Below the pieces are notes generated by a model. The model was not told where the DNA came from. It did no database searches and saw only the letters and a program-made list of their open reading frames with translations. From Escherichia coli (GTDB taxonomy: Bacteria; Pseudomonadota; Gammaproteobacteria; Enterobacterales; Enterobacteriaceae), in NCBI RefSeq assembly GCF_016026235.1, contig NZ_CP065613.1: a DNA stretch of 64,000 nucleotides; one strand, given 5' to 3'. Positions 13,701 through 39,263 of the stretch are shown in pieces (position 1 is the stretch's first letter; each line of letters starts with the position of its first letter). A program made the position numbers and the translations under genes.

Positions 13701-14229
13701 ACGGGCGCGGCGGCAGGTTACCCACCACCACCGAGGCCAGATACTGCGAAGTGGTTTTGCCCTTAATGGTGATGTCTTTTTCCGTCACCCAGCCACCGTT
13801 ACGCTGTATCTGAACCAGCAGGCGGACTTCCGACGGATTCCGGTCCCCCTTTGAGGTGGTTTCCACCAGTGCCTGCACACCGAAGGTCAGGCGCAGACGA
13901 TCAATGTTTGCCGACGTGATGGTCCGGGTGATCGGCGTGTCGTATTTCACTTCCGTACCCAGCACCGCCTCGGAGCCGGAGGATTCAAATCCCTCCGGCG
14001 GTGTCTGCTCCTGCTCACCGGCCCGGAACACCACCGTGACGCCGGAGATGTTGGTATTCCCCTCAGTGTCCAGCACTGGCGTACTGTTCAGCAGCACGCT
14101 TTTTAATCCATCCACCGGACCGTCAACCGGCCCTTCGCTGATGGCATCGATCACACTCAGCAACTGCGTGGACTTCAGGTTGTCCTTCGCTTCGCGCGGA
14201 GTATGCCCCTTACTGCTGCCTTTACCCAT
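10756..14229 (-). CDS. tail tip/host specificity protein J
   Basis: 1157 aa, lambda J-like. Confidence 0.95.
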
Positions 14230-14289
14230 TCCTCACGCTCCATAAACGACAAAACCGCCCGGAGGCGGTTTCACATAAAACGTTTTTCA

Positions 14290-14937
14290 TCAGCGACCAA
14301 TCACCACAACCTGACCACCATCCCCTTCGTCTGCCGTGCGGATCTCCTGAGAGACCACCCGCGACCCCACGCGCATTTCACCGTACAGAACGGGCAGAAC
14401 ATTGCCCTGGGCAACCATGTTATCCAGTGAGGAGAAATAGGTGTTCTGTTTGCCGTTATCTGTACTTGCTGCCGTGGGCGTCCTGGCTTTCGGTGCCAGC
14501 ATCTGCGCCACTCCGCCCAGGATCATACTGGCCCCTGCCGCATACATGCCCGATACAGCCGCGGCACCCAGCCAGCCCACAGGGTTCCACCATGCCACCG
14601 CAATCAGCGCCACCCCCAGCACCACCTGAAACACACTGCCACTTTTAGCTCCCGCCAGACGCGGCACGATGTGGATCACGGCACCATTTGCCAGCGGCTC
14701 ATTAAGACGGGCAGACAATTCGGTTTCACCTGCATCACGCCCGGCAATGCGTACCTGGTACCAGCCGTCGCTCAGTTTCTGACGAAACGCCGGGATCTGC
14801 ATGGCCAGCGCCCGGATGGCTTCGGACCCCGTTTTCACTCGAAGGTCGATGCGGCGGCCAAATCGTTGTAAATCCCCGTAAAGGCAGATGCGTGCCATGC
14901 CCGGTGACGCCAGAGGGAGTGTGTGCGTCGCTGCCAT
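14290..14937 (-). CDS. tail assembly protein I
   Basis: MAATHTLPLASPGMARICLYGDLQRFGRRIDLRV as lambda I. Confidence 0.9.
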   Translation of the reverse strand: MAATHTLPLASPGMARICLYGDLQRFGRRIDLRVKTGSEAIRALAMQIPAFRQKLSDGWYQVRIAGRDAGETELSARLNEPLANGAVIHIVPRLAGAKSGSVFQVVLGVALIAVAWWNPVGWLGAAAVSGMYAAGASMILGGVAQMLAPKARTPTAASTDNGKQNTYFSSLDNMVAQGNVLPVLYGEMRVGSRVVSQEIRTADEGDGGQVVVIGR

Positions 14938-15578
14938 TTGTCGGTGTACCTCTCTCGTTTGCTCAGTTGTTCAGGAATATGGTGCAGCAGCTCGCCGTCA
15001 CCACAGTAAATGGCGGCATGATTCGGCACCGATGAACCAAAACAGCACAGCAGCACATCGCCCGGCTGCGCCGCTGACAACGGCACCTGATACAGCCCTG
15101 TGGCCTCCAGATTATCCAGATAGAGATTCTGACCGTTACGCCACCAGTCATCCTCGCGATGAAAATCCGGCATCTCAATCCCCGCCAGATGGTAAGCATC
15201 CCGGAACAGCGTGTAACAGTCCGTCACCCCGTGCTCAAAGCGCCGCCCGGAAAGATGTGGCACACAGCGGAACTTGTGAATCGCCCCCCGGCAAACCAGC
15301 CACCACGGCAAATCACTCTGCACCTGCAGCCGCCGGTCGGTCTCACTCAGCCAGGGCAGACCACCGGGGTGGCTGTGGACCAGCGCCACAATCTCACCCT
15401 GCATCTCTGCCCGCAGCCAGTCCTCCGGCGACATCCGGAAATACTCCTCCGGCTCACCGGAGATATTCACGCAGGGAAAATATCTTTCCCCCTCCGGTGT
15501 TCTCACCACGAAGCCGCACGACTCCGCTGGCGCACATCGCCGGGCGTGCGCCAGAATCGCTGATTCTGTCTCTGTCAT
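14835..15578 (-). CDS. tail assembly protein K (MPN/JAMM plus NlpC/P60)
   Basis: HSHP motif and Cys-His hydrolase region; overlaps I as in lambda; start uncertain. Confidence 0.8.
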   Translation of the reverse strand: MTETESAILAHARRCAPAESCGFVVRTPEGERYFPCVNISGEPEEYFRMSPEDWLRAEMQGEIVALVHSHPGGLPWLSETDRRLQVQSDLPWWLVCRGAIHKFRCVPHLSGRRFEHGVTDCYTLFRDAYHLAGIEMPDFHREDDWWRNGQNLYLDNLEATGLYQVPLSAAQPGDVLLCCFGSSVPNHAAIYCGDGELLHHIPEQLSKRERYTDKWQRRTHSLWRHRAWHASAFTGIYNDLAAASTFE

Positions 15579-15583
15579 GGGAT

Positions 15584-16282
15584 TCACTGCGAAAGTTTGT
15601 TAATGGAAAGGAAGCCGCCAAAGTTGCCGACGTTATTGCGAAACTTACAGCCGCTCAGGCATTTGCTGCATTTATCCTTCGTGATATCGGAGGTCGGCTG
15701 GTCATATTCATCCGCGACCGCCGGACCGTGATAACCGCACTCATCACCGCGATAGGTCCAGGTGCAGGTATTAGCCAGCATGATGCGCCCCGGAAAAACA
15801 GCGCCGTCCGTTTCCGTCGGCGTGGACAGTACAAAAGAGGCACTCACCGCGCTCAGTTCGCTGCACTGCTCGATGCGCCAGCGGCTGATCACCTCCTGCT
15901 CCGGATCGGCGTCACTGTTTCCGTTGACGAAGTTCACCGCATCCAGAAAACGGGCGTAAACCTTACGCCGGACCACCGTTCCTCCGACCAGACTCTGCAG
16001 GTCTTCCGCCATCCCGGTGACCATGCCGTGCAGGTTAGAAACCGTCAGTGTCGGACGGGCAGCACTGCCTTTGCCGTTCAGTTCAAATCCCGTCCCCTGA
16101 ATGGGATACGCCTGATACTGTCGCCTCTGCCAGGTGACCGGCTCACCTTTATCGTTCTGCTCATTACAGAAAAAATAACGTTCTCCACCGACCACTGTCA
16201 GATCGATTTCCCAGAGCACCACCTGGGCTGACTGAGTGAGGCGTGTCGTCTCATGATGTGTTTCCTGTGGAATATCCTGCAT
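15584..16282 (-). CDS. minor tail protein L
   Basis: 232 aa, lambda L-like. Confidence 0.9.
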   Translation of the reverse strand: MQDIPQETHHETTRLTQSAQVVLWEIDLTVVGGERYFFCNEQNDKGEPVTWQRRQYQAYPIQGTGFELNGKGSAARPTLTVSNLHGMVTGMAEDLQSLVGGTVVRRKVYARFLDAVNFVNGNSDADPEQEVISRWRIEQCSELSAVSASFVLSTPTETDGAVFPGRIMLANTCTWTYRGDECGYHGPAVADEYDQPTSDITKDKCSKCLSGCKFRNNVGNFGGFLSINKLSQ

Positions 16283-16291
16283 CAGAGACTC

Positions 16292-16621
16292 CTATGCCAC
16301 GACCTGTTCAAAATCTGCCGTTATGGTTACCCACAACGCCCCCACGCTTGCCGACCATTTACGACAAACCACCCTGATCGGCTTCCAGTCATAAGGTGGC
16401 GTCCACTGAAATGCGCGGACGCCACCGTGCCGTTCCAGAAAGGCTTTTAAAGATGGGTGTTCACCTTTACGAACACGTATCGTCACGCTGTAAGTCGACA
16501 ACTGGTTATTCAGTCCCGCCGCACGACGCTGTTCATAACCATCGCCCAGCTTCACTGTCACCACTTTCGGCTCTGATACCACATTCATATCCGGGCGCAC
16601 TTTCCAGTGAAACGTCTCCAT
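16292..16621 (-). CDS. minor tail protein M
   Basis: 109 aa, same length as lambda M. Confidence 0.9.
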   Translation of the reverse strand: METFHWKVRPDMNVVSEPKVVTVKLGDGYEQRRAAGLNNQLSTYSVTIRVRKGEHPSLKAFLERHGGVRAFQWTPPYDWKPIRVVCRKWSASVGALWVTITADFEQVVA

Positions 16622-19600
16622 TACCGGTATGCTCCACTTAACCGGCCACCATCACGGGCCTGCTGTTGCATAAAGTCCGCGGCCGCTTTTTTCCCGAGGT
16701 CATAAACCACCTTCAGGGCAGCCGGACCTATCTGCCCGTTCGTGCCATCGTTATTGATCTCAATGTTGTACTGCGGGGCAAACATCACCATGCCTGAACC
16801 ACCAGTATCCGCCACAACCCCAGCTTACCATCAGCACCGCGACGCAGTGGCAGAATGGCTTCAGGTCCCGCTTCCCCCATCACACCCGCGCCTTTTGCAA
16901 AAGCAAAAAACGTCGGACGGTTAACCACCGTGCCACTGTAGCGACTCAAATCAGCAGACTGGTAAACACCGCCATCAGCATTAGTCGTGAAGCCGAATAA
17001 AGAACCGACGCCCTTTACCGCCTGCATCATGGCCATCTGTGCCATAATTCTGGCCATATCTGACAACAGGGAAGAGGTAAAGGATTTAAAATTCAGCTTA
17101 CCGGTGGTACAGAATGTCGCCAGTGCATTACCGGCACTGCTGAATGCCACTGTAAACATCTGTTCTACCGTTCCCGCCGCATTATCCGCATCCGCCGTAA
17201 AATTCTGAAACGCCCGCATGGCACCGTTTTTCCAGTCGCCCTGCGCCACTTCCAGTTCCTGCCAGTAGCGTTTGTTTTCATTCAGTTGTCGCTTCAGGCT
17301 CCCCTTCAGCACCTCCTCAGCCCTCCGGTAGTCCTCCGTCCCGTAAGTGCCTTTCTGGCGACTGTCATTCTCAAGCTGTTGCAACTGTTGCCGGTATTCC
17401 TGCCGGATGCGCAACTGTGCCTGGTAGCGCTGCCGCTGCTTATCCCCCATACCTGCAGTGGCAATATCCAGATTGTGCTGCTCACGCAGTGCACGTTCTT
17501 TGTCTGCCAGCTGGCTGGTCAGCTGAACCGTTTTTTTTCTCAGGTCGTTAAGCGCTGTCTGTTTCTGCAGCTCCTGCTGTTTCACATCCAGCAGCGTCAG
17601 CGCCTGAATCAGCTCATTCTTACGGGCCAGCACACTCTTTTCATCTGCCGTCAGCTTTTTCCCGCCCAGGTCGCTGATGCGCTGCTGCAGGGCCAGAAGC
17701 TGTTTATGCGCTTCAGTCATCCTTTCAGTGGCAATGCCTGCTGACTGTCTGGCAGCAGCAATCTGCCCTTCCACCTGTGCCTGCTGCTGACTGTACTGCA
17801 GCAATAACCGGGTGGCCTCATCATTACGGGTTGCCCGTGTATTTTTCTTAATGGCTTTTTCGTAACGTTCATTTTCACGCTGTATCGCCGCATCCCTGAC
17901 AGCCTGGTCGGCGTACTGCATGGCATTAATACGCGCAATTTCCCGCTGATGTCGTGCAGCTTCCGTTTCATTCATCCGGTTCAGCGCGGCATTTTCAGCA
18001 TTCCGGCGTTTCTGTTGCTCCTGGTAATTCCGTTCTGCCTGCGCTTTTGCATCCTGCAAATCCTTCCGGCGTTTTTTCTCCTGAAGATCGTTAAGACGCT
18101 GCTGATCGTACTCCACCTGTGTGGAGGCGTTTGTCCACGGATATTTTTTCGCGCGCTGAATTTTTTCCTGTAACGCATCAATCTGCGCATCCAGCGAGTC
18201 TTCACGACCAATATTCATGGCCGCATCCCAGAACTGCTTCCACCAGTCAGACAAGGTTTGCAGCGTACTACCCAGCGCATTGAGATTATTATCAATATCA
18301 GATGTGCGTTTACCGGTTTCCTCTGCCAGCGCAGACATGGCGATCCGGGCCGCATCACTGGACCGCCCCTGCTCCCCAAGGACGCGTATCTGCTCAAGCT
18401 GAGTGGCAGTCAAAAAATGCAGCGCATTGTCCAGCGCCTTCGCGGCATTTACAGGATCATCCTTCAGCCGCTTAAACTGATTTATGGTATCGCTGACCGA
18501 CTGGCCAACCGATCGCTCCATCTGTGCGGCAGCTTTCGCCACCATACCAATATCGTTTCCATGAAATGCCCCACTGCCCACCACCTGTGCCAGCGCACCG
18601 GCTGCCGCATGTTGCGTGATACCATTCCCGGATATGGCCCGGCTGAGTTTCCACAACTGCCCGACAGTGACACCGGCATAATGTCCCGTCAGCGCCAGCT
18701 GACGGTTAAATTCCTCGCCCTCCTTCCGGCCGTCATGCCAGGCTTTACCCAGACCCAGGACCGCCGCGACAAGTCCGCCAATAACGCCGCCAGTCATCAT
18801 GCCTTTCGGCGACATCAGTGCGCCTGTCCATCCGGCACGGTTAGCCAGCGTTATCCCGGATCCCCTCAGCGCACCAAAATTGCCGCGCGCCATCTGACTG
18901 ATTAACACCCCCAGCTCCCGCCGGGCTGCCGCACTTTTCAGCCCCAGCGAATGTGTGGCTTTTCCTGCCCGCTCCATTTTGCGGATATACACTTCTGCAG
19001 CACTGCTTACCCCCAGCTGAGCCGCCCTGGCGCGAAGCAACTCAGAAGACGACAGATTCTGGCGGGTTGCCTGCTCTTTAAGCTGGCGGATAAACGCCGC
19101 TTTCTGCCGGGTGGCCTGTTCCTCTGCCTGCGTCAGGGCACGGGTTTTCGCCGTGATCTCCGAAATCAGCGCCAGATAATCCTGCTGACCAACCCCGCCA
19201 CTGTTTCTGGCCTGTCGGATCTGCTGCTGAATACGCTGTAATTCCTGAAGCCCCGCACCGGCCTGTTTCACACTGTCAATCTGGCGATAAAAGGCGGCAG
19301 CCGCTTTATCCTGCGCCTCCGCCAGTGCCCTGGCCTGCGCCTGTTCCTCGCGCATTTTCTGGCTCAGCGCCTCCATGCGCTGGCGGGTTTTCTCCACCTC
19401 GCGGGCCATGCGTTCATGAGCCTGTGCGTTCTTCTCCACCGTCTGCGCATGGACGGATGCGGCTGTTGCAGCCGAAGAAGCCGCCTGCGTTGTCTGCCGG
19501 GCGGCCTGAGTCTGACGCTCCATAAAACGCTGCATACGGGCAGAAGACCGTTCTGCATCGCTGGCTGCACCATTCAGAAGGTTTTTGATACGGGGAATTT

Positions 19601-19661
19601 CATTTTTAAACTCTGCCGCATCAATCCCCAAATCAATGACCAGGTTGGCTATCTGGTCCAT
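16621..19661 (-). pseudogene. tail tape measure protein H, apparent frameshift near 3' end
   Basis: 968-aa ORF stops at 16785; conserved lambda H C-terminus (NNDGTNGQIGPAALK..DGG) is in a different frame in ORF 16621..16815. Confidence 0.75.
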
Positions 19662-19962
19662 AACGCACACCTCCGGAAATACCTTCCCCAAGATGCATCA
19701 GTTCTTCGTCCGTTCGCTCCGGTATCCCGTTCTCTTCCGGTAAAAGGCTGAAATCAGCCACCGCAGCATCGCTGCTGCCGGACACCATTCTCACGATCAA
19801 TGCCTTCAGCGAGGCAAACTGCGCATCCATCCACACATCACTGAAGCTCTGCATCCGGAAATAATCGCCCCACTCACCAAGCTCAGTGGCCGACATTTCC
19901 GACAGCATCCGCCGCCAGTCTGCCCGCCGGAACTCCCGGGCAAGCCGCATGACAAACTGCAT
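19633..19962 (-). CDS. T segment of G-T tail chaperone (made by -1 frameshift from G)
   Basis: Open frame with no own start directly after G, as in lambda G/GT. Confidence 0.65.
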   Translation of the reverse strand: MQFVMRLAREFRRADWRRMLSEMSATELGEWGDYFRMQSFSDVWMDAQFASLKALIVRMVSGSSDAAVADFSLLPEENGIPERTDEELMHLGEGISGGVRYGPDSQPGH

Positions 19963-20038
19963 TTCCCGCGTCAGGACTTTTCCGGCGTCAGCGCCTCATG
20001 ATCATCATCCCCGGCATTCTCAATGGTCCCCATACCGC

Positions 20039-20356
20039 TCAGCGACAGAACCCTCTCCGCCCCGCGCCCAGCGCATCATACGACCATGTTGTCATAATGG
20101 ATGCGCAAAGCGTCTCAACATCCTGAGACTGCTCAGCATTCCACAGTGAGCGGGAAACCAGCCAGGCATTGATATCCATTCCCATACGCAGAAAAGCAAT
20201 CTGTCGTTCAGCCTCCGGCAGTTCTCCCTCCTGTGCATCAAACTTTGCCGTTCGCTGCTGAACAAACGTCAGATATTCAATTCTCTGCAGCCCGGACAGC
20301 TCACTGAGCACCACGGACTGTTTTTCATAATTAAACGTATCCTGTTTCAGAAACAT
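20039..20356 (-). CDS. tail assembly chaperone G
   Basis: MFLKQDTF...VVLSELSGLQRIEYL resembles lambda G. Confidence 0.8.
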   Translation of the reverse strand: MFLKQDTFNYEKQSVVLSELSGLQRIEYLTFVQQRTAKFDAQEGELPEAERQIAFLRMGMDINAWLVSRSLWNAEQSQDVETLCASIMTTWSYDALGAGRRGFCR

Positions 20357-20414
20357 CATGTTCTCCGGATGCAAAAAGCCCCGGATAACCGGGGCAATGA
20401 TGAGTATCGTCCTG

Positions 20415-21155
20415 TTATGGTGCGCTGACGGTCACCGCAGCCACTGCCACAAACTCTCCGTCAGAGGTCATGCCCACGATGCTGACACTGCCCTGCTTCA
20501 CGCCTTTCACCGTGGCCACAAGCCCGCTCAGGGTCACCGAAGCAGTCTGAGGATCTGACGAATGCACACTGATCGCTTTGTCACTGGCCCCGTCAGGTTT
20601 TACTGTAAAGGTCAGTGTGGTGGTTGCTCCCGCTTTGACACTGACAGATGCCGGTGCCACCGTCAGTCCGGTAACACCCACGGTTTCAGCGCCCTCCTCT
20701 GCCAGATACGGACGCCCCACACCGCTGATTTTTACAGTACGGGTCATCACCTCTTTTGAGGTAATGGTTTTACCCAGTGAACTCAGCCAGCCACGGAAAA
20801 CATCAACCGTACCGTTGGGGTATTTGATACGAAACGCGCAGACTTCACCGGAATCGAACAACTGAACCAGTTTTTTCTGCCCGCTGTCACCCGGACGCCA
20901 GGCCAGCGTCGCCAAAGTATCACCGACGGATTTCTGCCCCTGGGTTGTCGTTTTCCAGTCTGCATCTTCATCATCGAGATAAGTGTCATCTTCTGCATCA
21001 GCGGTCATTTCGCCAGGTTGCAGATCCTTCACCATCGCAAGACGCAGCCAGTCAGTGTCCGACAAAGGGTTCGCAAACGCATCGCCCTTGCCGGTGTACA
21101 TCCAGAACGTCGTTCCCGCACCTTTCGTTTTTGCCAGTGGATTTGGTGTGGTCAT
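20415..21155 (-). CDS. major tail protein V with C-terminal Ig-like domain
   Basis: 246 aa from MTTPNPLAKTKGAG; lambda V length. Confidence 0.9.
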   Translation of the reverse strand: MTTPNPLAKTKGAGTTFWMYTGKGDAFANPLSDTDWLRLAMVKDLQPGEMTADAEDDTYLDDEDADWKTTTQGQKSVGDTLATLAWRPGDSGQKKLVQLFDSGEVCAFRIKYPNGTVDVFRGWLSSLGKTITSKEVMTRTVKISGVGRPYLAEEGAETVGVTGLTVAPASVSVKAGATTTLTFTVKPDGASDKAISVHSSDPQTASVTLSGLVATVKGVKQGSVSIVGMTSDGEFVAVAAVTVSAP

Positions 21156-21165
21156 TGCCACCTCC

Positions 21166-21579
21166 TTAATTCGTGTACGTGATCTGGTACGTGATTTCCG
21201 CCATCGCCCAGGTGGCCATCTCATTATCACGTTGATAGTTAAAACCGAGTGGGTTCATGGTGTCGATGAGTCCGGAAAGTGCCGGTACATCATTCAGGGC
21301 CGGGAAAATGGTGCTCTCCATCCACATATCCAGCTCTGAATCCGGTGCCTGTGCCCGGATGAAGACAGCAATATGCAGAACAGCCTGCCAGTCATCTTCA
21401 TCCGTCATTTTTCCGGTGTACTGAGCATCACTCAGCCACACCGCCACGGCAGGCAGTTCCTGCGCATCAACAAATGCCGGAAGCCCGTCAAAAAACGTGG
21501 CGCTGTCTCCACACTGTTCCCGAAGGCGTGCCAGTACGACCTGGCGGATCTGTGTATGTCGGTTCATCGGGTCAGCCAT
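21166..21579 (-). CDS. minor tail protein U (tail terminator)
   Basis: ATFFDGLPA...ELPAVAVWL...DSELDMWMES as lambda U. Confidence 0.85.
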   Translation of the reverse strand: MADPMNRHTQIRQVVLARLREQCGDSATFFDGLPAFVDAQELPAVAVWLSDAQYTGKMTDEDDWQAVLHIAVFIRAQAPDSELDMWMESTIFPALNDVPALSGLIDTMNPLGFNYQRDNEMATWAMAEITYQITYTN

Positions 21580-22148
21580 AACCTCAGTTGTTGTTTCAGT
21601 GCATACCCCAGCTGTTTCGGCATTTCCGCAGCAATGATGCGGTCGCGGGCATCTTCAAATGCCTGTGTCAGCGGTCCGGACAGCGGGATTTTCACCACAT
21701 CAATGGGGTAACGATTTTTGCCGTCAATACGCCGCATCACATGCCAGCGACCATTCGCCAGTTGCTGAATAAACGCATCCCGGAAAAGGTATTTCCCCAC
21801 TTTCAGTACGCTGCCACGATGACGTGAGTTGCTGCCATGCCGGGAGCGGGCCAGTCTGACCTGTGCGGTACCCAGCTTAATGGCGGGCAGGTTACCCCGG
21901 TTAACACGCATGCGGGCATACATTTTTCCTGAGGGGCTGGCTTTAAGCAGCCTGACACGCTCCCTGACCGTTTTCAGGGGAATACCTTTCACCTGGTTAT
22001 CCCCGGCAACGGTATTCTGCGCAACCTGCCGTGTGGCGACAGAAATAATCTTTGCCGCCACACGGTTTACCGCCCATGCGCTGGCCTGTGGCACCATGCG
22101 GGTATCGAGGCTGTTCAGATTACGGATGGCATTCTCAAGCCCCTTCAT
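21564..22148 (-). CDS. tail completion protein Z
   Basis: 194 aa, lambda Z position and length. Confidence 0.8.
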   Translation of the reverse strand: MKGLENAIRNLNSLDTRMVPQASAWAVNRVAAKIISVATRQVAQNTVAGDNQVKGIPLKTVRERVRLLKASPSGKMYARMRVNRGNLPAIKLGTAQVRLARSRHGSNSRHRGSVLKVGKYLFRDAFIQQLANGRWHVMRRIDGKNRYPIDVVKIPLSGPLTQAFEDARDRIIAAEMPKQLGYALKQQLRLWLTR

Positions 22149-22159
22149 CCCACACCTCT

Positions 22160-22435
22160 TTACTCAATAAAGATCATTGGTTTACCGTTAAAGCGTTCAT
22201 GCCGTGTGACCGTCCATTGTTGTCCGTCATAAACAACGCGGTCCCCGCGCCGTGGGCGGTATCCCGAAGAAAACACCACCAGAGAGACCGCCGGTCCGGA
22301 CAGAGCGTTCAGCTCTGCCAGAGTTTCTCCCGGGAGCACAGGCATATAAACATCATTAATCGAGGCCATCTTTCCCATCTTTCTGACCGTGATCGCATCC
22401 ATACGCGCTGCCAGCCGGGAAAAGGGATCAGACAT
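22160..22435 (-). CDS. head-tail joining protein (FII-like)
   Basis: Position between head and tail modules. Confidence 0.55.
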   Translation of the reverse strand: MSDPFSRLAARMDAITVRKMGKMASINDVYMPVLPGETLAELNALSGPAVSLVVFSSGYRPRRGDRVVYDGQQWTVTRHERFNGKPMIFIE

Positions 22436-22752
22436 TGAGTTTTACCGGCACTTCTTCTGCACCAGCTCCGGCATCTGCCCAGACAACCCCGACCAGCGGA
22501 TCAGAGCCGCTGTTAGTCAGCTGAACTTTTCCGGACTTCAGAAAAACCTTCTTACCCGTTTTCATGTCATCCGTTTTCAGCTTAGGCAGCATAAACACAC
22601 CTTCGGTCAGGCCGTCGCCTGTTTCACCCTGTGGAATATCGGTCAGCGCCACCGCAAAAACATCACCCACCTGCACCAGATCTCCGCTGCTGATGGCTGC
22701 ACTGGCAACAATCGCCACCGTTTTCCCTTCTTCTACAAAATTCTTTGCCATA
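22428..22752 (-). CDS. head-proximal structural protein, family unassigned
   Basis: 108 aa from MAKNFVEEGKTVAIV; directly downstream of capsid gene. Confidence 0.5.
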
Positions 22753-22837
22753 ACTGTCTCCGCACAGCCCCGTTCAGGGGCTGATTTCAGGTACAAAAAA
22801 AGCCCTTACGGGCCATCAGAGTTGTTATCTGCGACGT

Positions 22838-24072
22838 TTACGCCGTACATTTCACCAGACCGCGGTGATCAACTGGCGCGACACCAGCGTCAATACGCAC
22901 TTTCGTTGTCACGCCATCCACACTGAAGCCCTCCATCTGATCAATATATGGCGTATCCACACCGTTGAGATAAGCCACTTCAATCGTATCGGAGCCTTTG
23001 GACGCAGCCAGGTAGAAGGTGGTCTGGCTGTTATCATCAAGACGAGGCTCTGCAATAACGGTCGCAAAATCTTTCACCGGGTTAATAATACCGGCGTTAA
23101 TGTCAGCCCCCTTGACACTTGAGGAGCGAATGACCTGGTTAGCAACAGACTCCATCGCCGTCGGTACCAGTACGAACGCAGGACGAATATTCAGATGACG
23201 CTCACCCTCTTTCTGAACACGCATCAACTGGCGGGCTTTATCCAGCGATGCCACGTCCATTGCAGCGCTCTCCAGTACGTTTGCATGTTTCGCTTTATCG
23301 AACAGACTTACATTATCTGTGGAGATTTTCGGGTTAGACGTCAGAATGGCATAAACCAGATCGGCAATAGTGGATTTTGCCGCACGGCCCAGTTTCATCG
23401 GGACATCGGTCAGCATATTCAGATCATCGTTGATAATGGCCTGACGGGTGATACTGAACAGTTCACCATAGGTCGCCAGTGCAATCGTGGCCTGTTTATC
23501 TCCGGTAGTAACGTATTTATATTCCGCTCCTTCACGCACCTGACGCAGAGCACTGAAGCCCCCATACCCACACGATGGGCAATTTTAAAATCAGACAGCT
23601 GACCTTTCCGCGTCCACTGTTCATAGGTTTCAGGGGCATCTTCCCAGCCCTGCAGAATGGCTTTGTTCGCAACATCCAGCAGAATATTACCGAAGTCAGA
23701 CGTACTGTGTGTGAACGCTGCCCCGACCATCTGCATCGGGTTATAACCGGAAACCCCAATACCCCGTTCAGTCAGTGACATACGGGCATATTCACGCAGG
23801 GTCATCCCGTTGTAGACATTATCACGTTCAGTTTTTTCAAACCCGGCACGCGCCATCAGCGCCTGGCGGATCCCGTCCCCCACAAAATTACCGTTTCCGG
23901 CATAAATATGGGCCGGGGTATTTTTATTTGATGGTGAAAATTCCTTACCCATTTCGTTAAGTAATTTCTCACGGGCCTGCTCAAGCGAGCACTCCGGATC
24001 GGAAAGACAACTGGCCTGCAATGTCTGATAACGCCCGCCAAACATACCAAACAGTTCATTAATACCACTCAC
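22838..24072 (-). pseudogene. major capsid protein, frameshifted
   Basis: N-part ORF 23419..24072 and C-part ORF 22838..23539 overlap in different frames; junction at a G5 run near 23540-23560. Confidence 0.7.
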
Positions 24073-24827
24073 ACGTGCTTTTTGCTCTGCCAGTACCTGC
24101 GCACGGATACTGCTTTCATCTGCGGAAGGTGCATTTGTGGTGGTCGCGGTTGTGGCAACCTGAGCCGTAGTCTGCTCCTGTGTCTGAGATGCAGTATTTT
24201 GTTTTCAGGTTCACGCGTTGCACTGTTGCGTGGCGGAGTAATCATGTTTCGAATGGATTCCGGCATCTTTTTAAATTCCTCTGTACGTTTTGACTGAATA
24301 CATGCCATTGCCTTAACGGCTGGCGTCACCTGATCAGCAAATCCATGTGCCAGACATTCGGCACCGGACATCCAGGTCTCATCCGCCAGCATGGCAGCAA
24401 CTTCATCGGTGGTTTTCCCGGTTTTCTGTGCATAAGCGGGTAACAGAACCGCCTCAACTTTATCGAGCAGGTCGGCATAGGTGCGCATGTCCTCCGCATC
24501 ACCGCCCGTAAAGCCAAATGGTTTATGAATCATCATGAAGGTGTTTTCCGGCATAATGACCGGGTTTCCCACCATCGCAATGACCGACGCCATTGATGCC
24601 GCCACACCGTCGACATAAACGGTAATGGACGCACCATGTGTTTTCAGTGCATTAAAAATGGCGATGCCTTCAAAGACATCGCCACCCGGTGAATTGATAT
24701 GGAGATTAATGTGGGTGATATCGCCCAGTGCATTCAGATCGCTGATAAACTGCTTCGCCGTAACACCCCAGAAACCAATCTCGTCATAAATATAAATATC
24801 CGCGTCACTCTGGTGACCTGCCTGCAT
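24069..24827 (-). CDS. ClpP-like head maturation protease/scaffold
   Basis: IYIYDEIGFWGV...INSPGGDVFEG...MASVIAM motif; start uncertain; low-complexity C-terminus. Confidence 0.7.
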   Translation of the reverse strand: MQAGHQSDADIYIYDEIGFWGVTAKQFISDLNALGDITHINLHINSPGGDVFEGIAIFNALKTHGASITVYVDGVAASMASVIAMVGNPVIMPENTFMMIHKPFGFTGGDAEDMRTYADLLDKVEAVLLPAYAQKTGKTTDEVAAMLADETWMSGAECLAHGFADQVTPAVKAMACIQSKRTEEFKKMPESIRNMITPPRNSATREPENKILHLRHRSRLRLRLPQPRPPQMHLPQMKAVSVRRYWQSKKHV

Positions 24828-24840
24828 CCTGAACCAGGAA

Positions 24841-26346
24841 TTATTCTTCGGACTGGCCGTCGGTGTGCTGCGGCTCCTGTCGTTTCGTTGCGACACTGCT
24901 GCCTCCTTTATCACTGGCCGGATCGGTATCAAATATCAGACCCAGCTTGCGGTTTTCATCAATTTCAGCCTTGCGCCGACGTTTGACATCATCCGGATTA
25001 CGCCCACCTGCTCGCACCCAGTCTGATTCTGTCGCCGCTCCACCGCGAATCTGGATTTTCCAGGCCTCAGCCTCCTTAACCGGATCAATCCACGGCATGA
25101 CCGGACCGGAATATGTTGCGTTACACAACGTTTTCATATCCACATCCGACGGGATTTTCAGCAGACCTGCTGCTACCACCATGTTCAGCCACGTCCGGTA
25201 CACGGGACGGGTTACAGCACCAATAAAGCAGTCCTGCAGGATCAGATACCCGTCAGTGGACTCGACCAGCTCCTGTCGCTGAGCGCTGTAGGTACCGTTG
25301 TAATTGCGCGCCGCACTGGAAAAACTCATACGACTGCCTGCGGCCACCGCACGCAGCTGCCCGTTACGAAAAGTTTCAAGGTTAGGATTGGGCCGATCAG
25401 ATTTGACCATGCCAATATCTTCCCCCTTGCGCAAATCGTCATAAATAATGCCAGGGGTGATATGCAGTTCCCGGTCATTATCTTTATTTATCGTGGCGTC
25501 TTCATAATCCTGCCCATCTCCTTTACGGATATACAGCCCCAGAGCCGCAGCAACACGCGCCGCTGTCAGCTCAGCATCTTCATATTCCTTAAGCGCACTG
25601 ATCCGCATCAGCACACCTGACAACATGGATGTACCACGCGTCTGATGCAGACGACGGGTAAATTTCAGATGCACCATATTTTCGGCAACGATCTCTTTGG
25701 TATCACTCAGCCGCCCGGTAGTCGGATGATTTTTATAAACCAGGTATTTTTTCGGTCTGCCCCAGTCATCCAGAAAAACACCCTGATTCAACCCCACAGA
25801 TTCATCACTGAGCATGGGCACAAAATCCGGCTCCATTGCCTCGATCCAGAAAGGCACGCCAGCAGTCCGCACCAGCCCGCCGCCGGCACCACGAACCAGC
25901 TGGGCAAACACTTCACCATCACGTAACCAGGTACGCAGCAGCAGACGCTCGAGCATGGGGCGCGTATACTGCCCGGTCACATCCGGACTGACAGACCATT
26001 CCACCCACAAGCGACGGATAATCATTGCCAGCTCTGTGGCTATATCACCGTTCTTCAGTAATGGCTGGGGTTCGACAACGATCCCTTTTGCACCAATCAC
26101 CCGTTCCTCAAGTTTGTCGAAAACACCGATTACCAGATCATGATTGATGTCCAGAAAACGAGCCTGCTCCCGCAGGGAAACTGCACCGTACTTACTGAGC
26201 TGGTCGGCAGAACGATTTTCCCGCCGGGCTTTATGTGTACGAGTAGGCTTCACTGCCTCATAGGCACGAATTAATGCCCTTGAGCGCAATCTCGCAGCTT
26301 TCCAGCCAGGTGAAAAAACACCAATCACATCATCAAGAATTGCCAT
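24841..26346 (-). CDS. portal protein (lambda B family)
   Basis: 501 aa, between W-like gene and protease. Confidence 0.9.
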   Translation of the reverse strand: MAILDDVIGVFSPGWKAARLRSRALIRAYEAVKPTRTHKARRENRSADQLSKYGAVSLREQARFLDINHDLVIGVFDKLEERVIGAKGIVVEPQPLLKNGDIATELAMIIRRLWVEWSVSPDVTGQYTRPMLERLLLRTWLRDGEVFAQLVRGAGGGLVRTAGVPFWIEAMEPDFVPMLSDESVGLNQGVFLDDWGRPKKYLVYKNHPTTGRLSDTKEIVAENMVHLKFTRRLHQTRGTSMLSGVLMRISALKEYEDAELTAARVAAALGLYIRKGDGQDYEDATINKDNDRELHITPGIIYDDLRKGEDIGMVKSDRPNPNLETFRNGQLRAVAAGSRMSFSSAARNYNGTYSAQRQELVESTDGYLILQDCFIGAVTRPVYRTWLNMVVAAGLLKIPSDVDMKTLCNATYSGPVMPWIDPVKEAEAWKIQIRGGAATESDWVRAGGRNPDDVKRRRKAEIDENRKLGLIFDTDPASDKGGSSVATKRQEPQHTDGQSEE

Positions 26347-26564
26347 CAGAACCTCGCCAGTTTATAGCCCGGCGTCCCCCGTCGCCGCGCAGCCAGAGTC
26401 GCAAGGCGACGTTCCCACTCCTGCCGCCCCTGTCGGATCTCGGATAAGTTTTCCATGGTCATCTGCTGACCATTAAAAGTAATGGACTTTCCGTCCAGCA
26501 CTGCCATTTCCGCATTGATATAACGATGGATCATGGCTTCAATATCATTCTGGTTCACAACCAT
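26346..26564 (-). CDS. head-tail joining protein W-like
   Basis: Small ORF after terminase; C-terminus RRRGTPGYKL like lambda W. Confidence 0.65.
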   Translation of the reverse strand: MVVNQNDIEAMIHRYINAEMAVLDGKSITFNGQQMTMENLSEIRQGRQEWERRLATLAARRRGTPGYKLARF

Positions 26565-28657
26565 CCTCCGGAAGTCACCCATGGGTTTTCTTCATCAGGC
26601 ACCACTTTTTTTCGTTTCTTTTTTTTAACGGACACGGATACCGGCTCCGGCGAGGCTGACAGTCCGGCATCGTCCCTGACACGCTCCAGCCAGGTTTCCC
26701 TGCATGCCCATTCCGGCGCATCCGGCCACTGAATTTTCTCGTAACCATGCAGAATGACCAGAGCCTCGGCATACACCATCAGGTCAAAAGCTTCGTTGGC
26801 ACCTCGACCCGGCTTACTCCATTTCCCGTCACTGCTCCGCTCTTCATACGTCAGTTCGTCGTAAAACCAGCTCCCCAGCCAGTCAGGGAAATGCACATAG
26901 CCGGGACCTGGCGAGTCACGCCATAACGCGTTATTCACCCGGTCTTTCAGGGCATCCGTCTGAAGAAGCCAGAGCGGCACATCACCTGCGGCCTGCGCCC
27001 GTCGGCCCGTTCGTCCGGTGTTATCAGGGAATGTACGGGTGATCAGTTTTGCGCGCCGGATGCTGTCGCCCTTAAACAGGTAAATACGTTTACCAAGGCC
27101 ATCACGACGGCAACGACGCCAGAATTTATAGGCATTATCAGTGACCCCGTCTTCACCGCCGGAGTCCACCGCCATTGCCATCAGTCGCATTTGTTGAGAA
27201 GGATCGGAGGCCAACGGCCAGCTTTTATGAAAAACATCCGTCAGCAGGACATCCCAGTCCTCAGGATAACCAGCAGGATCAATTCGCAGGCTTTCTCCGT
27301 TGTTGTCACAACGCAATGACTGCGTGATGTTGTAACGATCAATAATCCAGCGTTCGCCACGGCAACCATAACCCGTTACCTGAACCACAAAACGGCGATG
27401 ACGTCCCGCCTGCACATCCACTGTCGCCGCCAGGAAATTAACACCATCCGGCACGCAGCGGGGAGGAACAGGCTCTGCCCGCTGCTCAAGCAGTTCACTT
27501 TTTCGTTGCTCCATGCTGGCGCGGGGAAGATAAGGTAATCCCCAGTCGGTGTTGATAACCGCCCTGAGTGTTTCTTCACTTCCGGTTGTCTCGTATTCCT
27601 GTTCTGCAGTAAGCAGTTTGTAAACGAGTTGCGAGAGTGTCTGGTAAGCAGCTGCCGGACCCTCCATCCAGAATGACGCAATACGTGAACGCCTGGGATC
27701 ACCATAACGACTGCCATCCGCATTGATGGATTCACCATCCCGCAACCAGACCCCACGTCCGTTCAGCTCACGTTTTTGTTCAGGCATAATCCGTCCTGAA
27801 CAGGAAGGACACTGAATATAAGCCGCCTCACTTGCCAGCACGGGATCGGCAATATCACGGAAACCAGCAACCACATCGCCGCAGGGCTGAAAATACTCAC
27901 CACAGTGTGGACAGGGCCAGTACCAGCGACGGCGATCGCCACGGTTATAGAGCGACAGTATCCCCGTGGTTGGTGGAGCCTCATGCGGTGAAGTCCGTCG
28001 CCATTTCACATCCTTCACATCCCTGCCGGGGGAACTCTCCACCAGCGTCATACCACTGGACATAAATGTTGTGGTACGTTTTGAGGCAAGAGAGAAAGCA
28101 TCCCCCTCACCATCAATATCTTCCGGAAAACGGTCATAATCCGTCAGCGCGACGCATTTATAATCTGATGAGGACATGATATTGACTGACGGCCAGCCGA
28201 TTTTCAGGTAGTTGCCAGCAAGGAATGTTCTGTCATAAACGTTGTTGTCATTTTTGTTCGGACTCAGGCGACTGACCACTTCCGGGCTGACGCGAAACGT
28301 TCTGGCGAGTCGTTTTTTGGAGTGTTCGCGGGCTTTTTCCTCCGTCATCTGAATGATCAGCATATCAGCAGGATCGCAAATCACGTTGTAAATCACCCAG
28401 CCGTCAATCAGGCCGATAGTCTTGCCGGTTCGTGCCGGGCCAACAAATATCACTGCGTCGTATTCACGCGAGGCCAGGCAGTTCATCGGCTCAATAACAT
28501 ACGGTGCCACCAGCGGATCCCACGGGACTGAGTTCCCTGCCCCCATGGGCACCCGCATATACTGAGCAACGGCATCAGCAACCCGCATTCGTCTTGGTGC
28601 GCGAAGGATATAACCTGAATCGGTTCGTGCTGCCTTTGCGGTTTCCTGATTCAGCAT
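26555..28657 (-). CDS. terminase large subunit (lambda A-like)
   Basis: 700 aa with Walker A FVGPARTGKT. Confidence 0.95.
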   Translation of the reverse strand: MLNQETAKAARTDSGYILRAPRRMRVADAVAQYMRVPMGAGNSVPWDPLVAPYVIEPMNCLASREYDAVIFVGPARTGKTIGLIDGWVIYNVICDPADMLIIQMTEEKAREHSKKRLARTFRVSPEVVSRLSPNKNDNNVYDRTFLAGNYLKIGWPSVNIMSSSDYKCVALTDYDRFPEDIDGEGDAFSLASKRTTTFMSSGMTLVESSPGRDVKDVKWRRTSPHEAPPTTGILSLYNRGDRRRWYWPCPHCGEYFQPCGDVVAGFRDIADPVLASEAAYIQCPSCSGRIMPEQKRELNGRGVWLRDGESINADGSRYGDPRRSRIASFWMEGPAAAYQTLSQLVYKLLTAEQEYETTGSEETLRAVINTDWGLPYLPRASMEQRKSELLEQRAEPVPPRCVPDGVNFLAATVDVQAGRHRRFVVQVTGYGCRGERWIIDRYNITQSLRCDNNGESLRIDPAGYPEDWDVLLTDVFHKSWPLASDPSQQMRLMAMAVDSGGEDGVTDNAYKFWRRCRRDGLGKRIYLFKGDSIRRAKLITRTFPDNTGRTGRRAQAAGDVPLWLLQTDALKDRVNNALWRDSPGPGYVHFPDWLGSWFYDELTYEERSSDGKWSKPGRGANEAFDLMVYAEALVILHGYEKIQWPDAPEWACRETWLERVRDDAGLSASPEPVSVSVKKKKRKKVVPDEENPWVTSGGWL

Positions 28658-29150
28658 TACTCCTCCTGCTGTAATTCCTCCTCATCATCCGCACCTGCTT
28701 CAGTCACCCGCAGGGCTATCTGATCGCGCAGATCATCAATAATGGACTGAACACGGCTCACAGCGGCAGGCTGCAGACCGCAGTCACGTTCAAGAATATC
28801 CGGTAATGTCTCCAGCACCTGCACGACCGCTTTTGCCCAGATGGCAAACTCCCGTCTGACATCACTGGCCGGAATGAGTTGTGCCGTTTCCTGTTCGAAC
28901 TTAAGACGCTCACGTTCAGACTGATACCAGGCTTTGCGCTCATGCGCGTCCATTTCGCCTTCTGCAACCGGCGGTGGTAATGCCAGAAATGCCGACACAA
29001 TATCAACCACCCGATAAAGCTTGAGGTTGCTTTCATGCCCCCTGCAACGGGTAGATTTTGCAGCCTTGCCGCAGCAGTCTGGCGATGTACACCTGACAGT
29101 GCCGCCAGTTGACTGATATTCAGCGTCAGATTTTTTAACTCTCGATCCAT
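28657..29150 (-). pseudogene. terminase small subunit Nu1-like, apparent frameshift
   Basis: Nu1-like HTH N-terminus is in ORF 28758..29150; C-terminal part ending at terminase start is in another frame (28657..29268 ORF). Confidence 0.65.
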
Positions 29151-29320
29151 ACCCGCTCCAGAATGTTTTAAACATGCATCTTGCGAACAACTTTAGGCAA
29201 ACGGTGTTAGTGATGAACAAAAAACAATCAAAACCGACAGCACAAAAATAAAACCACTGTAATATCAATACATTACAGTAGTGGTGATGACGAATGAAAT
29301 TTCAAAAACTAGCCTTTTTC

Positions 29321-29337
29321 CGCGCCGCTCCCGCCCC
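29321..29337. other. candidate cos site
   Basis: Minus-strand GGGGCGGGAGCGGCGCGG resembles lambda cosN GGGCGGCGACCT; upstream of Nu1. Confidence 0.35.
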
Positions 29338-29823
29338 GTGGCAGGCCACCCCACCGGGAGGACCCGTCAGCCTGACAGCCATGACGAACGTCTGATACAG
29401 CGCCCTGCATGAATGACATCGGGATAATCCAGAAAGGAATAGCATCGTACCCACAAGAATCAGTGTAAGTGTCCTGTTTCTTCCACCCCCGCACAGGACT
29501 GGCGAGCATGAGGGACAAACCCGCGAACCATAAACGCGGTAAAAACCCGGTGTGCATCGTTTTTGATTATTCCCGCACACTCGCGCAGAAGGAGTTCCCC
29601 GTCGGGCTACGGTCATGGTTAATGCGGGAATACAGCGACGATACAGCGCATGATGTGTCAGGCCTGAATACCTTTATCCGTTAAAAGGGATATCAGTTAA
29701 GTTATCCCGTGTAGGGTATAAGCCATTATCAAGCCCACCCGTAGATGGACTTTGTAATGGATAGCTGTTGCTCAGTTCTCGTAATGCTTTGATTTTTCCG
29801 ATAACGCAGTTTTGCGTTTGCCA

Positions 29824-30345
29824 TCAGCACGCGATATCGAGAGTCAACTGCAGTTGCTCGCGCCAGTACTCGACATTTGCTTCAATAACCGGCTTATCCC
29901 ATCGCCAGCGAGCCATCTCTCTTGCCCCATTGCTGGCTTTTGATTTCCGGTCATCGCGAATGCGACATGCTTGCTCATATTTCTGCTGCTCAGTCAGTTC
30001 ACCGCGAAGCAGACTATCAATGTGCAGGTCGCACCATACGGAGAATTTCGGATCGCACCATCTTGCAAAGGCAACTGATAACTTTGGATGCTGCCATGTT
30101 CCGCCGCCCCTGTCCTTTCGTGCCTTGCTTGTTTTTACATACCCGGAATCACGGGTATGTAGAATTTTCGATGGTTCACCTGAATAAACCTCATCCAGAG
30201 CTCTAACGTATTCGAGAGTTTCAGCGTTGGACAACCAGTGATCCAGACGCTTCCCGAAACGTTTTGCAATATCAGTGGCATTAATCCAGCCATCAGTATT
30301 GAAGCGGATAGGTTCGCCTTTGTAATTCAGTGGAACGATATTCAT
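29824..30345 (-). CDS. KilA-N domain DNA-binding protein
   Basis: 173 aa, MNIVPLNYKGEPIRFNTDGWINATDIAKRFGKR. Confidence 0.6.
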   Translation of the reverse strand: MNIVPLNYKGEPIRFNTDGWINATDIAKRFGKRLDHWLSNAETLEYVRALDEVYSGEPSKILHTRDSGYVKTSKARKDRGGGTWQHPKLSVAFARWCDPKFSVWCDLHIDSLLRGELTEQQKYEQACRIRDDRKSKASNGAREMARWRWDKPVIEANVEYWREQLQLTLDIAC

Positions 30346-30547
30346 AGCGTCTTACCTTTTAGAAAGATGAGCCTGTTCGCACAGAAAAGCCGCCCCGAGA
30401 TGGTCGCCACCATATACGGCAGTTCTCAGGCTCAGCTTTCTGAAAGACTCGGGATTGTTACGCGCTGCGATGCGCGGTTTACTGCGGACATATAAAAGCC
30501 CCGCAAGTGCGAGGCTCATTAAATTGACTTTGTGATTTGCAAAAAAA

Positions 30548-30985
30548 TTATTTCAGGCATTGCGTCCTGATGTATTCCTGCAGGTAGTTAACCTGCGCGG
30601 TTATCCTGTCGATTCCACTTCGGAGACGGTAATAATTGAGTTCAGCATCTGCTGTAAGTCCTGGGCTTTCTCCATAGCCCATGCTGCTGGCTCCGGTCGT
30701 TGACTTTGCACAGGTGGCGGCGACTTGCAGGCGCTTACGACCAGCAGAAACATCAGCACGGAGACTTTCGATAGTCGCGTTAGCATCAGCAAGCTCCTTT
30801 GTGTATCTGGCGTCGAGTTCTGCTACATCACGTTGACGCTTCTGCATATCAGAGATGATGGATGTGGCCTTATCGCGCTGCTCTTTGTAGGTAATGGCGT
30901 TATCACGGTAATGATTAACAGCCCATGACAGGCAGACGATGATGCAGATAACCAGAGCGGAGATAATCGCGGTGACTCTGCTCAT
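30548..30985 (-). CDS. i-spanin Rz
   Basis: N-terminal TM segment then coiled coil; ATGA overlap with endolysin stop. Confidence 0.8.
30601..30792 (-). CDS. o-spanin Rz1, embedded in Rz in another frame
   Basis: Lipobox LVVSAC followed by proline-rich [16 protein letters not shown]. Confidence 0.6.
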
Positions 30986-31515
30986 TGATCTATCCCCCAA
31001 CAGGCTAATGCGCTTTCCTGGTCACGACGAATAACCTGTCCATAGCAGTTATTTGAACGTATGCGGCAATCGCGCCCAACATCTTTTATCCACCAGCGAA
31101 TCGCCTCGCATGCGCCCTTACGATCACCGGCATTCAGCCGCTTATAAAACGTCGACGGGAAACACTTACCGGGGCCAATGTTATAGGGGCAAAATGACGC
31201 TATACCCGCTTTTTGTGGTTCGGTCAGTGGTACTTTAATATTGCGCTCCACCCATGCCAGCGCCTTATCACGTTCAATGGCGTTAACCTGGTCGCATTTT
31301 TCCTTCGACAGTTTCATACCGGGAAAAACGGGTTTACCATCCACCATCGTGGCACCCCGACAGATGGTCCAGATGCCGGAACCATCGCGGTATGCCGTAG
31401 TGTGGTTACCTTCTTTTTCATCCAGAAACTGGTCGAGAATATCAGGCGCAGGCGCACCGATAGCAATCAGTGCCAGAACGGCAGCCGACAGGCCATATCT
31501 GATTTTTACGTTCAT
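30982..31515 (-). CDS. SAR endolysin (lysozyme)
   Basis: 177 aa; hydrophobic N-terminal signal-anchor then T4-lysozyme-like core. Confidence 0.85.
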
Positions 31516-31836
31516 GGATATTTATCAGGATTTATCGGCTTCAAATCCCCGGATATGTTAAATCTTACCTCGCCAGTGATGGGCACTGGCGGGAGGAGGA
31601 TGTCAATCTGATAAACACAGAGGTGACTACGGATTACACAAATCTACCAAAACAAACTTTTGCTGATTTAATCGCACTCAGGCAAGCAGTCGTAGCTCTA
31701 ATCAACTTGTTGCCGGAGAAGGAAAAGGAATTAGTTAAAGCGCTTCTTAACAGAACTGCCGCCGATTTTTCATCATATCCACTGACAGATGACCTTGCGG
31801 ACCTTCCTGAATTAATTGCAGCGTCCGCCATTAAGC

Positions 31837-32367
31837 TTACTGAAGAGATTTACCCTCCTCAAAAATCTTCACAAAATTCCTGCGAGTAACTTCAATGCAA
31901 TAATCGTAAAACGCCGCAAACTGCTCATCGCGGCGTTTTTTTTCATCTTCAGAAGGAATCAGCACCGACAATTTTTTCTCCAGTTTTTCAATGGGCGATT
32001 CAATATCATCTTTTTCTGACCGCAATGCCGTCGGTGGCGTCTTCAGAGAACCAGTAATTCTTCCCGGTAGCTTTCCTTTGTAGGTTATCCACACATTCTG
32101 CGCCTCTAAAATTATGGGGCGCTTTTCCGGCGACTGCTCATCCCCTTCACATAACCCGGCAGCAACATCCAGGAATACCTGTCTGATTCTCATTCTGGCC
32201 GCTGCCTCATAAAACTCCAGCGCGGCACCTTCAACACGGTCCAGCGAGATGTCCAGGTCAAAAATTTCACCGTCAAAGCGTTTTTTGTCCCGTAACGCTA
32301 AAGTTACCGCAACTTTATTCTCAAAATTGCGGATCCCTTTCACAATCAGTTCATAGTTTTGTGTCAT
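31837..32367 (-). CDS. hypothetical protein inserted between holin and endolysin
   Basis: 176 aa; GGGGAG RBS about 9 nt upstream; starts 5 nt after holin stop. Confidence 0.6.
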   Translation of the reverse strand: MTQNYELIVKGIRNFENKVAVTLALRDKKRFDGEIFDLDISLDRVEGAALEFYEAAARMRIRQVFLDVAAGLCEGDEQSPEKRPIILEAQNVWITYKGKLPGRITGSLKTPPTALRSEKDDIESPIEKLEKKLSVLIPSEDEKKRRDEQFAAFYDYCIEVTRRNFVKIFEEGKSLQ

Positions 32368-32371
32368 TGAA

Positions 32372-32587
32372 TTACTCTCCCCGCGCAGCCTTACGCTTGT
32401 CTTCTCTTATTTTGAAATACAGGTTAGTCAGATATGTCAGCAGCCCAAACAGCAGACTCCCCAGCACGCCTATTGCCGCCCACTGAGACGGGGAAACCCT
32501 GTCCAGCAACTGCAGGAACCAGTAGCCCGTTCCCACCGCTGACGTGGTGTATGACACACCTGTTGTGATTTTTTCCATCTGGTCCAT
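32372..32587 (-). CDS. class II holin (phage 21 S-like pinholin), dual start MDQM
   Basis: [63 protein letters not shown] matches recalled S21. Confidence 0.85.
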
Positions 32588-32894
32588 ACCCCGTCTCCCG
32601 TTATCCGGAAGCTGACAACAATAAAAAAGCCACCAGTTAACTACTGATGGCTCTGATAACTCATGCAAGCGTCTCAGACGATCCACTGACACTACCGGTG
32701 AGTTTAACGATACCTTCCATTTGACTGGCTCACTTTTTATGATGATGCCGGTGCATTTATCTCCAGCACCAGACTTTCTATCTCAACGCCATACGTTGCA
32801 TTTTTGGTAATATCCGTCAGCGTCAGTGCATTTAGTCCCACTGCCAGACTGTCTTTTATGGCCTGGAATGCCGGGCCAGTACGATGACGTAGTA

Positions 32895-33083
32895 TCACTC
32901 CGGCTCAGTTGCACCACTGACCACCACATCACCTTCTGCTGCAATCGCCTGCATCAGGGTATAAGGGGTTATGGCCACCGGACTACCAAACGGCTGCCAG
33001 CCCTCTTTCAGTTTATGTGTCAGCTTTTCCGCAAGATCTGACGGCGGCGCCGCCCTGACAACATCATAGTGTTTAAATGCCAT
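32895..33083 (-). CDS. small phage protein (DUF1737-like)
   Basis: 62 aa from MAFKHYDVV; upstream of holin. Confidence 0.5.
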   Translation of the reverse strand: MAFKHYDVVRAAPPSDLAEKLTHKLKEGWQPFGSPVAITPYTLMQAIAAEGDVVVSGATEPE

Positions 33084-39262: not shown

Positions 39263-39263
39263 C

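Follow-up and report, generated by a model that had tools for sequence, protein, structure and literature searches.

Five one-base frame breaks in the head and tail genes of an ipaH-carrying Escherichia coli prophage are probably consensus errors within a duplicated module

The prophage and its five frame breaks

The window analysed here, a stretch of 64,000 nucleotides (nt) from Escherichia coli contig NZ_CP065613.1, holds between 6.1 and 52.7 kb a lambda-like, ipaH-carrying prophage whose late genes lie on the minus strand. It is flanked by aspS/yecD on one side and by a DUF72 (yecE-like) gene, yecN, cmoA and cmoB on the other. The head part of the late region comprises a small-terminase-like gene of the DUF1441 family, the large terminase, a W-like gene and the portal, followed by a ClpP-protease/scaffold/capsid fusion, a DUF2190 cement protein and a Gifsy-2 family gene; the tail part runs Z, U, V, G, T, H, M, L, K, I and J. 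Scanning the intact genes against Pfam and PHROG backs these assignments. Four of the late genes are interrupted by a total of five one-base frame breaks (Table 1), the origin of which is the subject of this study. As judged from their sequences, the affected genes are ordinary ones, namely those for the DUF1441 small-terminase-like protein, a Gifsy-2-type fusion, a gpG chaperone and a gpH-type tape measure protein.

We aligned the window with the near-identical relatives CFSAN029787 (locus L001) and FDAARGOS_943 (locus L002). At every break the window lacks one base of a homopolymer run that all close relatives have in full, and the comparison with L002 over 16.3-29.8 kb revealed exactly five one-base gaps, all of them homopolymer contractions. 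All five are losses of a single base from runs that are 5-6 bases long in relatives. Inserting one base per site restores, residue for residue, the intact proteins of near-identical relatives, and the breaks are thus not chance patterns of open reading frames (ORFs). The first-pass annotation of this DNA had reported three broken genes, with a tape measure C-terminus out of frame with its body, a major capsid gene switching frame at a run of five G and a split between the N- and C-terminal parts of a gene named Nu1. All three sites are real and lie at shortened runs, yet the count was too low, as the chaperone gene and a second break in the capsid gene have to be added.

In the window, the body of the tape measure protein (958 amino acids, 19661->16785) and its conserved C-terminal ORF (64 amino acids, 16815->16621) lie in different frames. 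The intact protein carries TMP_2, TMP_4 and Tape_meas_lam_C domains and its gene is located between T and M, as is fitting for a protein of the gpH type. In the chaperone gene, the break leads to a premature stop at 20039-20041 and a product of 105 amino acids. The capsid gene is cut twice. In its intact version (L023), which differs from the window gene at the DNA level only by the two missing bases, Pfam places CLP_protease at residues 31-191 and Phage_capsid_4 at residues 390-683, i.e., an N-terminal ClpP-like protease and a C-terminal major capsid domain are joined in one ORF. Finally, the DUF1441 gene has its N-terminal 38 residues in a different frame from the C-terminal part, with the gap seen against L002, L023 and L190. 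The repaired protein matches only DUF1441 in Pfam (E = 2.7e-41), where the same scan gave no match to Phage_Nu1 (PF07471), and falls into PHROG 141, 'terminase small subunit'. The name Nu1 should hence be dropped; judged by its profile matches, the protein is a positional and functional analogue of Nu1 and not a member of that family.

Table 1. Positions of the affected genes, the frame breaks and the other features discussed, in window coordinates (aa, amino acids)
Feature	Position	Strand	Details
Small-terminase-like gene (DUF1441 / PHROG 141)	28657..29150	minus	164 aa intact
ClpP-protease/scaffold/major-capsid fusion gene	22838..24896	minus	686 aa intact; one gene, read in three frames
Tail assembly chaperone gene gpG	19971..20356	minus	128 aa intact; Phage_TAC_2 (Pfam)
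Tape measure gene H (lambda gpH type)	16621..19661	minus	1013 aa intact; last 55 codons out of frame
Break in DUF1441 gene	gap at 29042	minus	G6 in relatives, G5 here; plus-strand C5 at 29038-29042
Break in capsid fusion gene	gap at 24200	minus	A5 in relatives, A4 here; plus-strand T4 at 24197-24200
Break in capsid fusion gene	gap at 23563	minus	G6 in relatives, G5 here; plus-strand C5 at 23559-23563
Break in gpG gene	gap at 20063	minus	G5 in relatives, G4 here; plus-strand C4 at 20060-20063
Break in tape measure gene	gap at 16821	minus	G5 in relatives, G4 here; plus-strand C4 at 16818-16821 (C5 in relatives)
Sole substitution relative to same-clone assemblies	17167	plus	window A, all other fetched loci G; Ala to Val in tape measure
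Nu1-to-H head/tail module	16383..29616		13.2 kb; near-identical second copy in the NCTC assembly
Candidate natural -1 slip site, gpG-T fusion	19977..19983	minus	motif G GAA AAG, T frame open across
IS600 copy splitting the DnaB-like replicative helicase gene	36753-38017		real lesion; flanks abut in L002 at 9804/9806
IS600 copy abutting the 3' end of the Band_7 gene	47821-49084
IS600 copy truncating the integrase gene	51413-52676		real lesion; 390 aa left (437 aa intact in L045)
ipaH (IpaHd) type III effector gene	6108-7859		intact, 583 aa; at tail-fibre end of prophage

Same-clone assemblies and the duplicated module

Three assemblies of the same clone, GCA_900449985.1 (the NCTC assembly), GCA_014155105.1 and FDAARGOS_943, jointly span the whole window. 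The NCTC assembly was reached by exact look-ups of the window's M, J and Band_7 proteins, and GCA_014155105.1 by exact look-ups of its W, Band_7 and 176-aa DUF1327 proteins. The NCTC contig UGFA01000002.1 (L036), which carries the same prophage at the same locus, covers window positions 756-24225 (23,474 nt) and differs there by four one-base gaps (16821, 20063, 23563 and 24200) and one substitution (17167). JAALAC010000003.1 (L190) covers positions 22840-41367 (18,531 nt), with the gaps at 23563, 24200 and 29042 as its sole differences. A second NCTC contig, UGFA01000005.1 (L047), matches positions 37019-57828 at 100.000% over 20,810 nt, all three IS600 copies being identical base for base, and the flanks at 1-6000 and 52700-64000 are 100.0% identical to FDAARGOS_943. 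For the early region at 31.5-52.7 kb, no near-identical match was found in ecoli_genomes and the region was compared through protein look-ups instead, one of which returned unrelated prophages only.

Altogether, the differences between the window and the same-clone assemblies consist of five homopolymer deletions and one substitution, which is private to the window and unrelated to homopolymers. The same-clone assemblies have all four genes intact, and the comparison with related strains that the first-pass annotation had called for shows full-length runs and single continuous frames in these assemblies as well as in the near-identical relatives. The longer runs are present in L036, in L190/L023 and in L186, a second prophage of the NCTC genome described below, with the exception of a run of four A at 24200 in L186. 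As such, inheritance of the lesions by clonal relatives or independent assemblies (L036, L186, L190) was not observed, only the A4 allele recurring, and this in the other prophage copy. Over the 58.5 kb compared, no changes indicative of secondary decay were found downstream of the breaks.

The head/tail module in which the breaks lie occurs twice in related genomes. Starting from an odd 147-aa DUF2190 variant of the NCTC genome, we found the second NCTC prophage (L186; GCA_900449985.1 UGFA01000002.1 646953-667396), located ~500 kb away on the same contig as the first. Compared with window positions 16383-29616, its only substitutions are that at 17167 and a blast-listed mismatch at 16817 beside the gap in H; the other differences are an indel of ~76 bp at 18580-18655 and homopolymer indels. 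In the sister strain GCA_014155105.1, the second prophage (L028) differs from the window over ~14000-21619 only by one substitution and by the gaps at 16821 and 20063. The duplication is thereby demonstrated in the NCTC and JAALAC assemblies, and in the window's own genome it is hinted at by two M-protein accessions ~400 apart in one accession block.

All six differences are located inside 16383-29616, and they fall within 12.2 kb of the 58.5-kb comparison (approximate p = 0.002). Among G/C runs of at least 5 bases, 4 of the 15 inside the repeat are contracted, compared with none of the 31 outside it (p = 0.008), where four runs of six G (6338, 6689, 15284, 60533) are unchanged. The use of the clean flanks as evidence against sequencing error was abandoned, since these 17 kb hold only 9 G/C runs of at least 5 bases and such a test has little power; we therefore set the runs within the repeat against those beyond it instead.

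The kinds of change observed are also informative. In E. coli, substitutions typically outnumber indels by 5-10 to 1. Under such a ratio, six events would include five or more indels with a probability of 7e-4 to 3e-5. The excess of indels found in the 58.5 kb (five, against one substitution) is thus far from the natural mutation spectrum, and the normal share of substitutions that a genuine pseudogene would have is not seen.

The second NCTC copy has homopolymer changes of its own, which add one base to A/T runs at the window-equivalent positions 22443, 22941, 23837, 24749 and 29319, besides the A4 at 24200 and a deletion of ~76 bp in the tape measure gene. As a result, its capsid, DUF2190 and H genes are broken; here too errors are likely, real decay of that copy being the alternative. 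Because this set differs from that of the window, the module appears to draw homopolymer differences in more than one assembly.

Probable consensus errors and the competing explanations

In our judgement, which draws on sequence comparison, the five breaks are most likely consensus errors of this assembly and not mutations of the organism. The first-pass annotation had favoured decay of the prophage and named single-base errors at homopolymers as the alternative; this alternative is now preferred, given the intact same-clone genes and the confinement of the differences to the duplicated 13.2-kb module. A long-read consensus would under-call the length of homopolymers, and the short reads used for polishing would not be uniquely placeable inside a near-perfect repeat that is longer than the insert size. 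Errors would then be fixed in unique sequence and kept in the module, where they would survive because the module occurs twice in the genome. According to the Polypolish paper (PMC8812927), residual long-read errors are mostly errors of homopolymer length and are often left in repeats after short-read polishing. The window shares with such errors the single-base run changes confined to a long intragenomic repeat, the identical unique surroundings and the resulting apparent frameshifted pseudogenes, and differs in its bias to G/C runs (four of the five) and in the clean A runs of its IS600 copies.

Several observations weigh against consensus errors as the origin of the breaks. The sequencing and polishing history of the assembly is an inference here, which also sets it apart from the Polypolish cases. 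The three IS600 copies, the most repeated sequence in the window, are free of errors; this cleanliness tells little, however, because the copies contain no G/C run of at least 5 bases and only A runs of 5-7. FDAARGOS_943 carries a similar duplicated module without such breaks. The substitution at 17167 has no homopolymer cause and needs an explanation of its own. Finally, the short alleles of two genes occur elsewhere, that of gpG (G4) in four other contigs, one of which is a Logan assembly, and that of the capsid gene (G5) in many Logan contigs on several sequence backgrounds, which, as far as sequences can tell, reflects either real slippage at these runs or a recurring error.

The best of the competing explanations, though an unlikely one, is that the breaks are real and very recent slipped-strand deletions, private to the strain stock, and that the structural genes are decaying pseudogenes. 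Homopolymer runs are natural hot spots of slippage, the prophage was already disabled by IS600 in its helicase and integrase genes, so that its structural genes would be without selection, the public assemblies with short gpG and capsid alleles probably include Illumina-based ones, and an ordinary substitution, at 17167, accompanies the deletions. Yet the lesions are missing from every other same-clone assembly, the excess of indels is unlike a natural spectrum, no break is followed by secondary decay, and the differences track an intragenomic repeat, a boundary that mutation has no reason to respect. The comparison with known systems leads to the same division. With the slippage pseudogenes of Shigella and enteroinvasive E. 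coli (EIEC) the window shares the host type, a prophage riddled with insertion sequences and frameshifts at mononucleotide runs, whereas true decay lesions are clonally inherited and come with substitutions and secondary lesions, and the breaks in the window are private to one assembly and come with neither. Of the decaying prophage proposed in the first-pass annotation, the IS600 lesions in helicase and integrase therefore stand, but the frameshifts probably do not count as decay, the same-clone assemblies being intact.

A broader variant of real slippage, which we consider improbable, holds that the G5/G6 tracts in the four genes are hot spots that repeatedly and independently disable virion assembly in the ipaH prophages of Shigella and EIEC. 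It is supported by the capsid run, which has 5, 6 or 8 bases on varied backgrounds, together with the gpG G4 allele in four contigs. If true, slippage hot spots would provide a fast and potentially reversible route to prophage domestication, of which the window would have caught several events at once.

The public sequences give a mixed picture of these runs. In IMG/VR, 19 sequences are intact and 1 is short at the tape measure site, 112 are intact and 2 are short at the DUF1441 site, and the A4 allele is not represented. The capsid run equivalent to window 23559-23563 varies in length across public contigs, and its G5 allele is found on backgrounds with as many as 16 mismatches per 1.1 kb between them; either slippage is truly frequent at this run or the same error recurs there. 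Some of the Logan contigs with short alleles are probably based on Illumina reads. An exact look-up of the truncated proteins found only the 105-aa gpG and the 233-aa capsid fragments elsewhere. The latter, a C-terminal piece, has its own protein entry on 134 contigs; we did not use it as evidence on the window's strain, as it is called after lesions at several upstream points in prophages that are ~95% identical to the window.

Two deposited sequences with short alleles were set aside. CP026824.1 (L014/L022) has three of the short alleles and was discounted for its ~17 extra G/C-run deletions in 8.3 kb, and the sole short tape measure allele in IMG/VR belongs to L052 (IMGVR_UViG_2874920711_000002), an assembly full of G/C-run deletions that was discounted as similarly error-prone. 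The extra one-base deletions of both, in G/C runs of 4-5 bases, represent a clear case of systematic under-calling of G/C homopolymers in deposited genomes.

Still less probable is that some short alleles genuinely belong to the second copy and came in from there, either through mis-phasing while the genome was assembled or polished or through actual gene conversion between the two prophages, and this would concern one site at most. That site is the run of four A at 24197-24200, which is A4 in the second NCTC copy (L186) and A5 in the first. With ~5 kb of repeat on both sides, it sits where reads are hardest to assign to a copy; the A4 could thus be genuine in one copy and have been placed in the other by mistake. 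The other four short alleles, however, are found in neither NCTC copy nor in the JAALAC loci (L023 and L190 for the head, L028 for the tail), and L186 has five other changes in A/T runs, so that its A4 may itself be an error.

Functional recoding or phase variation, by programmed ribosomal or transcriptional slippage at the runs, is hardly credible, and programmed frameshifting was rejected because the two-frame arrangement is not conserved. Nearly all fetched homologues have single continuous ORFs at all five sites (L001-L003, L018-L021, L023-L025, L027-L030 and L036), the intact IMG/VR alleles at the tape measure (19/20) and DUF1441 (112/114) sites also count against conservation of two frames, and two shifts would be needed in one capsid gene. 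Efficient transcriptional slippage generally needs runs longer than 4-5 bases. In its favour, if tRNA-Gly slipped by -1 on one of the shortened G runs, as worked out by hand, the native protein would be restored exactly, so that low-level leaky expression is conceivable, and a programmed -1 shift is indeed known from the tail chaperone genes of this family, although at another site (Table 1). Against it, the stop in gpG lies upstream of that site and abolishes both G and G-T.

For genome analysis, the preferred explanation of the breaks as consensus errors brings no new biology but a caution, namely that apparent pseudogenes at homopolymers are not to be taken for gene decay when they lie within a duplicated prophage module. 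Arguments about genome reduction in Shigella and EIEC depend centrally on counts of pseudogenes, as does the prediction of intact or inducible prophages. If the five frameshifts are errors, the morphogenesis genes would all be intact, and the only defects would be those caused by IS600 in the helicase and integrase genes.

The candidate natural slip site, IS600 and the prophage setting

A single frameshift in this region is expected, from its sequence, to be biological, and it is not among the reported breaks: the candidate -1 slip site for the gpG-T fusion. The minus strand at 19971-19990 reads ccg gaa aag tcc tga, the register of the slip site having been worked out by hand. As in lambda, the genes are ordered V-G-T-H, T is read in the -1 frame with respect to G, and a shift-prone motif rich in A stands shortly before the G stop; the motif is G GGA AAG in lambda and G GAA AAG at the equivalent place in the window. 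In contrast to the programmed shift of lambda, the gpG deletion lies ~80 nt upstream of the motif and shifts in the opposite direction; moreover, it does not mimic the programmed event, because the stop that it creates precedes the slip motif.

Irrespective of how the five breaks arose, the prophage is defective all the same, because IS600 has inserted in its helicase and integrase genes, both insertions being shared with the NCTC assembly. The copy in the integrase gene is present in the NCTC assembly and absent in the sister strain GCA_014155105.1. The IS600 copies are ~99.3-99.8% identical to IS600 in related genomes.

The IpaHd protein encoded at the tail-fibre end of the prophage is annotated with identical sequence in E. 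coli and Shigella records, and these records point to an enteroinvasive E. coli or Shigella-like host. At the same locus, FDAARGOS_943 carries a prophage (L003) with a lambda-type head module (S49 protease, D, E) in place of the ClpP-capsid fusion, the chromosomal flanks being 100% identical. L003 was dropped as a direct reference on account of this different head module, and only the other prophage of that genome, L002, a paralogue, was comparable. The difference in head modules indicates, on the evidence of these sequences, an exchange of modules between co-resident prophages within the lineage.

The repaired capsid fusion resembles the 'tripartite' capsid gene of Gifsy-2, attributed to Effantin et al. 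(2010, Virology 402:355) in PMC8538268. Both genes comprise an N-terminal ClpP-like protease, a middle segment and a C-terminal major capsid part, and in related loci a Gifsy-2 family gene (PF13856) lies just downstream of the fusion. This likeness is one of described domain layout, and in the window, unlike in Gifsy-2, the ORF is cut into three frames by the two one-base deletions.

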